From an uncultured archaeon (GTDB taxonomy: Archaea > Asgardarchaeota > Jordiarchaeia > Jordiarchaeales > Jordiarchaeaceae), in contig CAZECW010000149.1 in NCBI GenBank assembly GCA_964510585.1, positions 1 through 23,668 of the forward strand: a DNA stretch of 23,668 nt, given 5' to 3'. Positions 2,947-11,981 of the stretch are shown piece after piece. The notes under the pieces were generated by a model. That model was not told the DNA's origin. It ran no database searches and saw nothing but the letters and a program-made list of their open reading frames with translations. Position numbers and translations under genes: made by a program. How positions within the stretch are numbered: position 1 is the first letter of the stretch; every line of letters begins with the position of its first letter.

Positions 2947-3152
2947 TTTTGTGCAACGCTCACTTGTATTTCTATGTTATATTAGTAGAGGATGTAATTA
3001 TTAAGTTAACTAGTTTCTCCAGTGGCGTTCCCAAGATTTTGAACCAGTTTATGGAGTTTTAAATATATTTTTCTCAATTTTAATAAGATTTTTTTTGAGT
3101 TATACCTAGTGTTTATATACTATTTTGTTTCTCCACTCCTAAGGGTGATAAC

Positions 3153-3701
3153 TTGAGTTCTGAGGAAAAAATTGTGGGTTTCTTAAAGTTAAGAGGCTAC
3201 GAAGTGAAGGAAATAGAGGAGAAAAAAGAGGGCAACTATAGGATTATTAGGGCGGTTAAGAATGGTGAAGAAAACGTTTTCATAATTAGAAGTTACGATT
3301 CTCAAAAGGTTATTGGGACCGCCCTAGTGCGCAGTTTAAAGGAGGTTATGGATGAGAAGGGGGCTTCCAAAGGATTTTTGGTGGGAGGAAAAAGAAGTAC
3401 ACCCAAGGCTAGAGAAATCGCATTAGAATCCAACATAGAACTAATAGTGGATTACCCCATATTAAACATCTTTGACCATTACCTTGTTCCCAAACACGAA
3501 ATAGCCCAACCAGAAGAATATGAAAGAATTCTTAAAAAATACAACATCAAGAAGGAAGATCTTCCCAAAATAAAAGTTTCTGACCCTGCCATAAAAGCAA
3601 TTGGAGGAAATGTGGGAGACGTAGTCAAAATAACTCGGGACAGCAAAACTGCAGGGAAAACAGTTATCTTCCGCTACGTTATCGAAGACACCGCCCAATA
3701 A
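3153..3701 (+). CDS. rpo5: RNA polymerase subunit Rpo5 (RpoH) with an N-terminal RPB5-jaw/restriction-endonuclease-like domain
   Basis: C-terminal ~80 aa (NIFDHYLVPKHEI...LPKIKVSDPAIKAIGGNVGDVVKITRDSKTAGKTVIFRYVI) is the Rpo5/RPB5 assembly domain. An extra ~100-aa N-terminal alpha/beta domain precedes it. TTG start with GGGTGA RBS. Confidence 0.92.
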   Translation: MSSEEKIVGFLKLRGYEVKEIEEKKEGNYRIIRAVKNGEENVFIIRSYDSQKVIGTALVRSLKEVMDEKGASKGFLVGGKRSTPKAREIALESNIELIVDYPILNIFDHYLVPKHEIAQPEEYERILKKYNIKKEDLPKIKVSDPAIKAIGGNVGDVVKITRDSKTAGKTVIFRYVIEDTAQ

Positions 3702-8244: not shown

Positions 8245-9048
8245 TTATTCTTCTATGCTTGCCCCACAATTTGGGCAGAAAACTGCAAACTGTGGAACTT
8301 CAACACCGCAATGTGGGCAGAATCGAGCCTTCTTCGGTGGTCCCAGCTTTATTTCTACCTTGGGTTTTTCTTCCCCTGTGATAACCATTTTTTCCTCTTT
8401 GGGAGCCTTCCTTTTTATCCCTTTGCTCGTACTAAGTTCCTTTATCCAATTGAACATATTAAGCAGAATTTTAGCGTTGTCAAATCGTCTCATGAAGGCC
8501 TTAGTGAACAACATTATACTGCTTACAAAAACCATCGTGCCTTTTCCGAACTCCCTAACTGCAATTACTGGAAATGAACGTACACCCAGCTGGACTCTGG
8601 CGATTTGTGTCCATTCAGGAATCAGGTTTGCCCTAAACCATGGAGCATGAATCTTAAATATTCCTGAAGTAATGGGGTGCAGAGTAAAGTCGGTAACAAA
8701 TTTGGAATTCATTCCTAACCAGTCAATCCCGAGTTCACGGGCAAAAACTGTCTTGTAGATCCTGTCAGATCGGGAGGGAGTTACCAACAGTATTCCTCCC
8801 TCTTGGACATAGTCCATAACCGCTCGGGTTTCCTCAACCCTCCAATCGTACTCTTTTCGAAATTTTCGAGGACCTATGATGGCTAAGGCGTCATATGTTT
8901 CTAGTAGTTTGGAGGTTAGCGGCGTAGAGGAGTTTACATAGAGGTCTAAACCCCAGTTCACAATACTGTTCTTTATGTCGTTGTAGATTCTGGCTTTGGT
9001 TTCCTCATTATGGTACTCGTCTAAAAGCATGTTTACGTTACTCGACAA
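8245..9048 (-). CDS. GldG/IFT52 (GIFT)/DUF4350-like class I glutamine-amidotransferase-fold domain with a C-terminal zinc ribbon
   Basis: LLDEYH...LTSKLLETYDALAIIGP...EETRAVMDYVQEGGILLV...HPITSGI...FGKGTMVFVSS...DNAKILLNMFNW pattern, followed by a Lys-rich linker and CPHCG-x9-CPNCG. Confidence 0.7.
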   Translation of the reverse strand: MSSNVNMLLDEYHNEETKARIYNDIKNSIVNWGLDLYVNSSTPLTSKLLETYDALAIIGPRKFRKEYDWRVEETRAVMDYVQEGGILLVTPSRSDRIYKTVFARELGIDWLGMNSKFVTDFTLHPITSGIFKIHAPWFRANLIPEWTQIARVQLGVRSFPVIAVREFGKGTMVFVSSIMLFTKAFMRRFDNAKILLNMFNWIKELSTSKGIKRKAPKEEKMVITGEEKPKVEIKLGPPKKARFCPHCGVEVPQFAVFCPNCGASIEE

Positions 9049-9155
9049 ATAATTAACCTCCCTTTATAATATGCTGTTTTGTGAGTCTAATTTTTAAATG
9101 TATTTCTATGGATATAAATATAGCTTTAATGGCAAATTGGTTAATAAGCCTGTCT

Positions 9156-10124
9156 TCAATAAACACGCTTCATCTTAGAGTATAGTTTTGTCCTAAGATT
9201 TGTTAGCTCCTCTGCGGTTTTTCTTATGTTTCCCATAGGAATTTTAGGTTCCAGTCGCGCTACGAACCTTTTCCAGCGTTTGGGGATAGAGGTTAAACCG
9301 CTTTTCGCTCCACAAAGACCTCCTGCAATGCAACCTAGAGTGTCAGTATCGCCTCCAGAATTTGCAGTTACTAGTAGGGCTTTTCTGATGTCGCCCTTAA
9401 AAACTGAAAAAATTGCAAAGGCTGTAGGCACGGATTCCCATGAGAGCGGCCCGACACCTATTTCCCTATAAAGAGTCCTCAGTACTTCCCAGGGGTCTGT
9501 TTGGTTTCTCACAAGTTCCTCTGCCATTTTTATGCGGAACGCCACACTTTTACCAGACTTGACTCCGAAATTTTCGCCCAGCTCAGCTCCTTCAAAGGCG
9601 GCATCAACTATCTGCTCTACACTGAATCCTTCCACCGCCGCGGAAGTCGCACAAGATACAGCCACAGCCGCTGAAATTGCTGAACTACCCCCATGAGTTA
9701 CCATTGAGGAGGTAACGGTTTTCTCCAAAATCACTTCAGGTTCATAAGGAGTGCATAAACCAATAGGAAAAGCACGCATGGCAGCTCCATTGGTATTGCC
9801 TGTGGTAGAAACAGTTTTAGGATCATTTTGTAGACGCATTATCGAGGCTTTTGTAGATGAACCTAAACGTGGACAATCGGCACTTTTTAAAATTGCTTTT
9901 ACAATACTGTCGTGGGTAACGTCTGCCTGGTTTTCTATAAGAGCTTCGGCTATAAGAAAGTTCAGAACGGTGTCATCAGTTATTTCCAAACTCAAAGGGT
10001 CTTTTATAATCCCGAACTTTGACCTTATCTGGTAGGGGGTCATGCCCTCTGTTGCTGCACCCAAACAATCCCCTATGGTAAGCCCCACCAGACAACCATG
10101 TATGCGGTTAAGCATTTCAGACAT
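9156..10124 (-). CDS. ADP-ribosylglycohydrolase (ARH/DraG family)
   Basis: GDCLGA, TDDT, TNGAAMRAFPIG, THG, GGDTDTLGCIAGGLCGA motifs. Start set at ATG 10124 (GGAGG 6 nt upstream). Confidence 0.92.
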   Translation of the reverse strand: MSEMLNRIHGCLVGLTIGDCLGAATEGMTPYQIRSKFGIIKDPLSLEITDDTVLNFLIAEALIENQADVTHDSIVKAILKSADCPRLGSSTKASIMRLQNDPKTVSTTGNTNGAAMRAFPIGLCTPYEPEVILEKTVTSSMVTHGGSSAISAAVAVSCATSAAVEGFSVEQIVDAAFEGAELGENFGVKSGKSVAFRIKMAEELVRNQTDPWEVLRTLYREIGVGPLSWESVPTAFAIFSVFKGDIRKALLVTANSGGDTDTLGCIAGGLCGAKSGLTSIPKRWKRFVARLEPKIPMGNIRKTAEELTNLRTKLYSKMKRVY

Positions 10125-11246: not shown

Positions 11247-11981
11247 TTATTCTGCTTTTTTTATTGATTCCTTTAAACGCTGAAGTACTGCTTTAATATC
11301 TTCTTCTGTTCTTCTTTCAGGGTAAGCATCCCCGGAAATGGTTTGAATGGCTCTTCTCGTTTCAACTTCGGCGGTCTCTATTTTTTTAGGTTGATAAACT
11401 ACGTTTTGTGAGAGTTGAGCGGATTTTCTATCAATACGTGTTCTTAACTCATCGAAAAAGTTTTCAGCTATGGGAGCCTCCCTTGAGAGGGGTATGTTAT
11501 CTGGAGGGGTTGCAGGTTGCACTCTTGTTAAGGTCGCAGCTTCAGACACTTCGGTTCCCAGGCCATAACTTTCAGCTTTGGGGATTGTGGTGGCTGTTTT
11601 GGGAACCTCCGGAGAGAGTGTTGCAGCCGGTGCTGGAGGGGGCTCCGGCTGCTTTTTAACCATTATTGGTTCAGCTCTGGTGGCGTCTTCAACAAGTTGT
11701 AATGGAACACGTATTCCCCCTGCAGGAGCACCACTCCTCACCCCGCCCTTTTCCAAGTTGGTGATTCGGGTATCAAGATTTACAATCTGTTTTTCGATTT
11801 TGACCATTCTTTCCTCAAATGAGGATAGGTAGGTCGCTAAGATACTTGAAAGTCTATCTATTCCCAGTTTAACCTCTTTTAGCACGTCCGAGTCTTTGCC
11901 GGATTTGGAATTTTTCGATGCTTGCCTAATTATTGGGGGATCTAGACTTCCTTCCTTTTTATCTTTACTAAACATTGGCAT
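11247..11981 (-). CDS. Hypothetical coiled-coil plus proline-rich protein
   Basis: Heptads at residues ~55-77 (F55, M59, I62, I66, L69, I73, L76), a P/A/T/E-rich linker (QPEPPPAPAA), and amphipathic helices NFFDELRTRIDRK and DIKAVLQRLKESIKK. AGGTGG RBS. Confidence 0.8.
   Translation of the reverse strand: MPMFSKDKKEGSLDPPIIRQASKNSKSGKDSDVLKEVKLGIDRLSSILATYLSSFEERMVKIEKQIVNLDTRITNLEKGGVRSGAPAGGIRVPLQLVEDATRAEPIMVKKQPEPPPAPAATLSPEVPKTATTIPKAESYGLGTEVSEAATLTRVQPATPPDNIPLSREAPIAENFFDELRTRIDRKSAQLSQNVVYQPKKIETAEVETRRAIQTISGDAYPERRTEEDIKAVLQRLKESIKKAE

Follow-up and report, generated by a model that had tools for sequence, protein, structure and literature searches.

The DNA analyzed here (the window) is a stretch of 23,668 nucleotides from an uncultured Jordarchaeia archaeon, namely positions 1 to 23,668 of contig CAZECW010000149.1 in assembly GCA_964510585.1, and the subject of this study is one of its genes, rpo5 (or rpoH), which encodes an RNA polymerase subunit. 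We consider it very probable that this gene is the only Rpo5/RpoH of the archaeon and that its product carries, in addition to the usual assembly domain, an N-terminal dead-nuclease domain that is kin to the jaw domain of eukaryotic Rpb5. As far as we found, Rpo5/Rpb5 subunits of this form have not been reported from archaea before. The original prediction, made from the DNA letters, had proposed a two-domain Rpo5, and Pfam, NCBIfam, and AlphaFold2 (AF2) bear this out, with an Rpb5_C domain at residues 105–176 and a separately folded N-terminal domain (N-domain) at residues 1–102. The open reading frame (ORF) is unbroken over 182 codons, and its parts are as follows.

Positions 3153..3701, + strand: rpo5/rpoH coding sequence, with a TTG start, 182 amino acids (aa), and a TAA stop.
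Positions 3153..3458, + strand: N-domain, an inactivated PD-(D/E)xK (Mrr-like) fold, residues 1–102, from Pfam, AF2, profiles, and the tree.
Positions 3453..3482, + strand: inter-domain hinge, residues 101–110, from the full-length model.
Positions 3465..3680, + strand: Rpb5_C/RpoH assembly domain (C-domain), residues 105–176, from Pfam and NCBIfam.

The C-domain, which starts with ILNIFDHYLVPKH, matches Pfam RNA_pol_Rpb5_C over residues 105–176 with an E value of 6e-29 and a score of 100.1 bits (cut-off 23.5), and the protein scores 110.1 bits on the NCBIfam RpoH equivalog NF007129 (cut-off 83). The C-terminal 75 residues are 50–55% identical to solved archaeal H subunits; the overall identity of the protein to eukaryotic Rpb5 is 22–29%. 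Five residues of this domain (H109, P113, D144, R162, and R174) do not vary in alignment A1; in the PDB alignment they correspond, with a constant offset of 38, to H147, P151, D182, R200, and R212 of yeast Rpb5, Rpb1-binding residues with a critical role in vivo (PMC1802627). The source genome (3.78 Mb, 96% complete) contains one Rpb5_C locus, and there is likewise one match per genome in each of five congeneric genomes. Since this is the sole Rpb5_C locus in the genome, we take the gene to be the organism's Rpo5 and not an extra paralogue.

In Pfam, residues 7–99 of the N-domain match Mrr_cat (E = 1.4e-8, 35.3 bits, cut-off 21) and, less strongly, NA-iREase1 (E = 3.7e-7). AF2 folds residues 1–102 with a mean predicted local distance difference test (pLDDT) score of 91.2 into an alpha-beta-beta-beta-alpha-beta-alpha-beta arrangement, which is the PD-(D/E)xK core. 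A Foldseek search with the full-length model returned eukaryotic Rpb5 chains as top matches, with alignments of as many as 199 columns (E ~1e-12). The hinge is the only stretch of that model with a pLDDT below 50, and the model therefore does not predict how the two domains are oriented to each other. When aligned to an active Mrr family, the catalytic D/E/Q/K positions are occupied by R30, I44, S47, and D49, and across all 36 aligned archaeal N-domains, the residues in these columns are either hydrophobic or variable. Because the catalytic positions have been replaced, we do not regard the N-domain as a nuclease; judged by its residues, it lacks metal-binding and catalytic side chains and is predicted to be unable to cut DNA, in line with what had been read by eye from the PD-(D/E)xK positions.

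Purifying selection on the N-domain is strong. Among six congeneric genomes, its dN/dS (ratio of nonsynonymous to synonymous substitution rates) is 0.013–0.081, a constraint as strong as that on the C-domain (0.015–0.137). The conserved landmarks are R14, which lies in an RGY motif, G55, T83, A86, and E96, with R14 being present in 35 of the 36 archaeal N-domains. In yeast Rpb5, inversion of the charge at the Arg of the DRGY motif (R26E) is lethal (PMC1802627).

In all likelihood, this N-domain shares ancestry with the N-terminal module of eukaryotic Rpb5 (Rpb5-N). A profile built from the N-domains, and only the N-domains, of 36 archaeal sequences was searched against the PDB, where it matched RPB5 of fly (E = 2.3e-9), human (1.2e-8), and Arabidopsis (1.4e-6), as well as RPB5 of the yeasts S. 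pombe (2.9e-5) and S. cerevisiae (8.9e-5). Eukaryotic RPB5 accounted for all significant matches, each aligned at the correct place, and the top nuclease had an E value of 5.3. The depth of the profile mattered: a PDB search with the single N-domain sequence gave nothing significant, 12 sequences reached Rpb5 with an E value of 0.017, and 36 sequences with 2e-9. The absence of nucleases from this search is a partial control only, because a true Mrr_cat domain, searched by phmmer against the PDB, matched nothing there; the absence does count, because the structural neighbors 1y88, 4f0p, 4oc8, and 7e8r sit in the PDB and were not matched. With full-length profiles, the alignments to eukaryotic Rpb5 of solved structure are colinear from approximately residue 20–30 to the C terminus.

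Comparison of profiles with hhalign aligned the archaeal and eukaryotic N-domains over 99 columns, including helix 1 with the RGY motif, at a probability of 98.6% and an E value of 7e-16. Against an Mrr family, the probability was 86.8% (E = 4e-6) for the archaeal profile and 3.5% (E = 0.012) for the eukaryotic one. Hence, in terms of sequence, the archaeal domain lies between the nucleases and the eukaryotic module; these values and the minimal core of 100 aa fit the idea, put forward in the original prediction, that the domain is an intermediate. Residue pairs that had been matched by eye recur in the alignments: the hidden Markov model (HMM) alignment pairs VIGTALVR...GFLV and STPKA of the archaeal protein with KVGIKTIK...ALIV and MTPSAK of Rpb5, and the HH alignment reproduces the pairing of LKLRGYEV with ML.DRGY.V. 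In the latter alignment, the extra columns of the eukaryotic profile fall between the RGY motif and strand 2. Conversely, when an HMM built from 42 eukaryotic N modules was run against all 24,931 six-frame ORFs of the source genome, the ORF at 3153..3701 was the sole match (E = 2e-4).

A maximum-likelihood tree (LG+C20+F+G4, 79 sequences, 114 columns) was calculated with 11 nucleases and nine standalone relatives as the outgroup. In this tree, the N-domains of archaeal Rpo5 and of eukaryotic Rpb5 all fall into one clade, with an ultrafast bootstrap (UFBoot) value of 98 and a Shimodaira–Hasegawa-like approximate likelihood ratio test (SH-aLRT) value of 91, and this clade leaves out all 20 sampled nucleases and standalone relatives. 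A second alignment and tree search gave the same split (SH-aLRT 87). Together with the PDB and hhalign results, the tree upholds the earlier expectation of a specific similarity to Rpb5-N and finds no grouping with active Mrr nucleases. Within the clade, the eukaryotes are monophyletic (100/98) on a long stem, and the archaeal sequences are deep and diverse. The Jordarchaeia N-domains are closest to a Bathyarchaeia group, with weak support. One archaeal N-domain, P0055, branches apart from the main archaeal group; its assignment to an Asgard family was dropped, its best match being 36–44% identical.

The long form of the subunit is not peculiar to Jordarchaeia and is widespread in Asgard archaea and Bathyarchaeia. 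The archaeal N-domain profile, applied at E ≤ 1e-6 to 400 Asgard species genomes from 33 families, found matches in 215 genomes and in most of the families, and nearly all of the matching ORFs are ~180–230 aa long and also bear Rpb5_C. At this threshold, there was no match in families f4–f6, f18, f21, f23, and f27. Matches were sparse in f19 (1 of 14 genomes) and f20 (2 of 135), and three sparse families together amount to 3 of 153. Two of these three are probably Lokiarchaeia, a tentative label; f19 looks Lokiarchaeia-like and f27 Odinarchaeia-like, both labels being likewise tentative. Many Bathyarchaeia metagenome-assembled genomes encode the long form, at 37–46% identity across residues 4–178, and among 301 sampled genomes of Thermoproteota, 42 have a long-form N-domain.

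Based on these data, we propose the following origin and role. The C-domain would dock on the Rpo1 helices, as it does in archaeal and eukaryotic enzymes, and by analogy with RNA polymerase II (Pol II), whose lower jaw contains the Rpb5 N module (e.g., 1i6h and 5xog), this would bring the N-domain to the lower jaw of the polymerase cleft, a position toward which we lean. There, the N-domain would have a structural, noncatalytic role, lining or touching downstream DNA and providing a surface to which factors can bind; the contact with downstream DNA, i.e., the jaw function proper, is suggested by the same analogy. The eukaryotic jaw would then descend from an archaeal two-domain Rpo5, with some 30–40 residues inserted after the first helix. 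It seems likely to us, if less so than the kinship itself, that the Rpb5 jaw is an archaeal invention, made by joining a dead Mrr-like nuclease to RpoH before the Asgard lineages diverged, that eukaryotes inherited and elaborated it, that Bathyarchaeia obtained it by descent or transfer, and that Lokiarchaeia-like and Odin-like lineages lost it.

Several observations weigh against this proposal. Of the two Pfam searches that had been suggested at the outset, the one with Mrr_cat was positive, as described above, and the one with RNA_pol_Rpb5_N was not: it gave no match to the protein at E ≤ 10, and in none of 371 Asgard genomes did Rpb5_N score above its cut-off. As a single sequence, the N-domain scores higher on Mrr_cat (36.7 bits) than on the eukaryotic N profile (24.6 bits), and a genuine Mrr-like nuclease, L135, reaches 29.6 bits on the latter. 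Structure alone puts nucleases above Rpb5, the VIA-align neighbors of the N-domain being AF1548 (Z 9.7), MspJI (Z 9.2), and NRPB5A (Z 7.8), of which the Rpb5 match has the highest identity (19%). The tree is built on 114 columns and a thin outgroup of 20 sequences, with a bootstrap that had not fully converged, and it does not settle the branching order of the eukaryotes among the archaeal groups. The inter-domain geometry of the full-length model is unusable (hinge pLDDT 41; predicted template modeling score 0.52), and jaw position and DNA contact are extrapolated from Pol II, the models being of single chains only. The Rpb5_N negative is not read against homology, because the Pfam model appears to span only part of the module: it has 89 positions and covers, on a eukaryotic member, residues 8–94 of a 133-residue N-domain. 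It omits most of the region that is best conserved between archaea and eukaryotes. Equally, the Mrr_cat label is compatible with homology to Rpb5-N, because Mrr_cat is also matched by 21 of 44 N-domains of eukaryotic Rpb5, approximately one half. Two yardsticks were dropped in the course of this work, namely the structural ranking as a guide to the nearest kin, which shows fold and not kinship, and HMM bit scores as a means of telling the groups apart, since some nucleases score like cross-domain Rpo5/Rpb5 pairs. The source genome has no other Mrr_cat gene above threshold and thus supplies no control nucleases of its own. If archaea and eukaryotes had each joined a different Mrr-like domain to RpoH/Rpb5_C, the likeness of the two N-domains would reflect a shared clan. 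Such a convergent fusion would agree with the Pfam label of the archaeal domain (Mrr_cat or NA-iREase1, not Rpb5_N), with the Mrr_cat matches of eukaryotic Rpb5-N, which make all three clan relatives, with the nucleases ranking first in structure, and with some Mrr-like ORFs of Thermoproteota that score 27–46 bits on the archaeal profile, in the range of eukaryotic Rpb5-N (median 33). We nevertheless judge it improbable, since the two domains follow each other in the same order, with a colinear alignment through both, the archaeal and eukaryotic N-domains form a supported clade without any sampled nuclease or standalone relative, the hhalign E value between them is ten orders of magnitude better than that between the archaeal domain and Mrr, and both have lost the catalytic residues and have the RGY Arg in common.

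Transfer in the opposite direction, with a eukaryote or giant virus (Rpb5 is also present in Nucleocytoviricota) as the donor of the archaeal two-domain gene, would account for the patchy archaeal distribution and for the language-model neighbors of the N-domain, which are Nucleocytoviricota and eukaryotic Rpb5_N clusters at scores of 0.77–0.83, below the reliable range. It is very hard to reconcile, however, with an archaeal domain that is less derived and more nuclease-like than the eukaryotic one (the hhalign probabilities against Mrr given above) and lacks the eukaryotic insertion, with eukaryotes forming a single long-stemmed clade beside deep and diverse archaeal sequences, with a C-domain much closer to archaeal H subunits than the protein as a whole is to eukaryotic Rpb5, or with the occurrence of the long form in Bathyarchaeia and in the majority of the 33 Asgard families; we regard such a transfer as highly improbable. 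A separate question is whether the N-domain, whatever its descent, acts as a jaw. Instead, it could serve in regulation or in interaction with a factor, a chromatin protein, or nucleic acid while being tethered to Rpo5, or it could act off the polymerase. The flexible hinge leaves the orientation of the domain unpredicted, relatives with two to three tandem N-like repeats (P0061, P0064, P0068, and P0073) are hard to fit into one jaw site, and yeast genetics casts doubt on the importance of the proposed proline contacts between Rpb5 and DNA (PMC1802627). Yet the protein is the sole Rpo5 in the genome, so that its N-domain is necessarily brought to the polymerase, and the domain is mildly basic (pI, the isoelectric point, 8.8); a role other than that of a jaw thus appears unlikely to us, although less so than a convergent fusion. 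We retain the reading of the N-domain as an inherited jaw module, with the jaw position held less firmly than the ancestry.

The surveys also turned up a number of variants. The proteins with tandem repeats just mentioned, of which P0061 has 436 aa and P0064 has 481 aa, carry two to three N-like dead-nuclease repeats before Rpb5_C, and the NCBI name for these multirepeat Rpo5 proteins is "RpoH/Rpb5 C-terminal domain-containing protein." Some long-form variants have charged C-terminal tails, and P0099 (211 aa) and P0154 (218 aa), from an archaeal lineage of two-domain Rpo5, have an insertion of ~30 residues within Rpb5_C, ahead of the last strand. The short two-domain proteins P0088 (179 aa), P0117 (175 aa), and P0120 (183 aa) clearly show the eukaryote-type motifs FVFFP and ARYFG and lack most of the eukaryotic N insertion; they could be a bridge between the archaeal and eukaryotic forms. 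In the large Asgard family f31 (genera g77–g79 and g83), two full-length two-domain rpoH genes stand in tandem, ~100–170 bp apart (e.g., G370:C31:10606-11127 and 11295-11816, and G353:C32:8013-8543 and 8657-9181), a case of a duplicated RNA polymerase subunit. In family f28, the two-domain rpoH contains one in-frame TAG in all three genomes (L013–L015, at G308:C12:49232-49753, G307:C4:787428-787949, the latter from Candidatus Borrarchaeum weybense, and G306:C216:1294-1815). This fits stop-codon recoding, which has been reported for some Asgard lineages (PMC9723677).

Two further groups of proteins are related to the N-domain. One is a standalone family of ~115 aa with a "DWKRTVGVN" motif (L115, L117, and L139–L145), found in Asgard archaea and Thermoproteota, which scores 32–46 bits on the archaeal profile, keeps a D...DxK-like pattern, and forms a clade of its own (100/100), separate from that of Rpo5/Rpb5; among free-living relatives of the jaw domain, this family may be the closest. 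The other is a second ORF of 191–192 aa in some Bathyarchaeia, exemplified by L146 (G400:C1:634500-635900) and L148 (G542:C13:48500-49700), with an N-domain inside the Rpo5-N clade and a C-terminal half that lacks the H-x-LVP-x-H motif of Rpb5_C. From its sequence, we would classify this type as a diverged paralogue.

Upstream of the coding sequence, two further elements can be recognized.

Positions 3112..3119, + strand: candidate archaeal TATA box TTTATATA, ~34–41 nt 5' of the start codon, read from the sequence.
Positions 3143..3149, + strand: Shine–Dalgarno-like motif GGGTGAT, 3 nt upstream of the TTG, read from the sequence.

The GGGTGAT motif supports the TTG start, and the orthologues in five congeneric genomes begin at the equivalent codon, which is TTG or GTG. 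The TTTATATA box would be a candidate promoter element. The closest homologues are 81–99% identical and are listed by NCBI under Candidatus Jordarchaeum, Jordarchaeaceae, or Freyarchaeota. DNA of the window recurs in metagenomes of 15 studies, chiefly of hot springs, and an RNA-seq library from a sediment sample contains a 337-nt contig from a ~96% identical relative that spans positions 3250–3586, including the domain junction; this one library hints, at the level of a contig from a relative, that the gene is expressed. In the source genome, rpoB lies on another contig (G000:C209:8407-11757) with no rpoH before it and no rpoA1 after it, and the gene that follows it, on the opposite strand, is Lrp-like. 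The rpoH-rpoB-rpoA operon that is usual in archaea is dispersed in this genome. Similarly, no ORF as large as rpoB follows the long rpoH on a Bathyarchaeia chromosome.

Previous reviews describe archaeal RpoH as being without any N-terminal domain (PMC3906176, PMC6690254, PMC1802627), and these reviews and a census of PD-(D/E)xK proteins treat the N-terminal module of Rpb5 as exclusive to eukaryotes (PMC1802627, PMC3906176, PMC6690254, PMC3424549). Our full-text literature searches, whose scope did not extend to subscription-only papers and supplements, did not uncover any account of a two-domain Rpo5 from archaea, and the accessible part of a 2026 survey of archaeal small RNA polymerase subunits does not mention a long Rpo5. 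That Pfam calls Mrr_cat and misses Rpb5_N may help to explain why we found no report. Standard annotation hides the N-domain behind the Mrr_cat call. In a cluster of Bathyarchaeia RpoH formed at 90% identity (P0040), most members have 182 aa, and several deposited gene calls have 72–81 aa, which is the length of the C-domain; gene calls of this kind would mask the N-domain in databases. If our interpretation is correct, one more piece of eukaryotic polymerase architecture moves back into archaea, an informational "eukaryotic signature" is added to Asgard archaea and Bathyarchaeia, and the jaw becomes available in a minimal, less derived form, the role of which is open to reconstitution or structural study.

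Among known systems, canonical archaeal Rpo5/RpoH (~80 aa; 4qiw_H, 8cro_H, 7ok0_H, and 1hmj) resembles the present protein in being single-copy and in matching the RpoH equivalog, whereas the extra folded N-terminal domain of 100 residues and a gene that does not adjoin rpoB set the present protein apart. Mrr_cat endonucleases (PF04471; AF1548 1y88, MspJI 4f0p, AspBHI 4oc8, and NucS 2vld) have the same fold and topology as the N-domain, but their catalytic D...(E/Q)xK is replaced in the latter, which is fused to an RNA polymerase subunit, whereas Mrr-like nucleases are fused to a DNA-recognition domain; in the tree, the N-domain falls outside the sampled Mrr-like nucleases. NA-iREase1 (PF22722, the NACHT-associated inactive restriction endonuclease) is another inactivated Mrr-like domain and matches 33 of 50 short-form N-domains, but occurs in the context of NACHT NTPases, unlike the Rpo5 fusion.

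The system most like the one described here is eukaryotic Rpb5/RPABC1 (PF03871 and PF01191; 1dzf, 7eu0_E, and 9mu7_E). Both proteins have the same two-domain order with a short hinge, both have an N-domain with a catalytically dead PD-(D/E)xK fold, and the two have four motifs in common, namely RGY where helix 1 ends, h-G-h following strand 3, T-P-x-A ahead of helix 3, and I-E-x-F/I within the last strand, as well as the same five Rpb1-binding residues in the C-domain. They differ in that the archaeal N-domain comprises ~100 residues, versus ~140 in eukaryotic Rpb5, and lacks the eukaryotic insertion after helix 1, is not recognized by Pfam Rpb5_N, and is nearer to Mrr-type nucleases in sequence and structure than eukaryotic Rpb5-N is. 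In addition, the C-domain of the present protein is of the archaeal type, and eukaryotic Rpb5 is common to Pol I, II, and III, whereas the archaeal subunit serves one polymerase.

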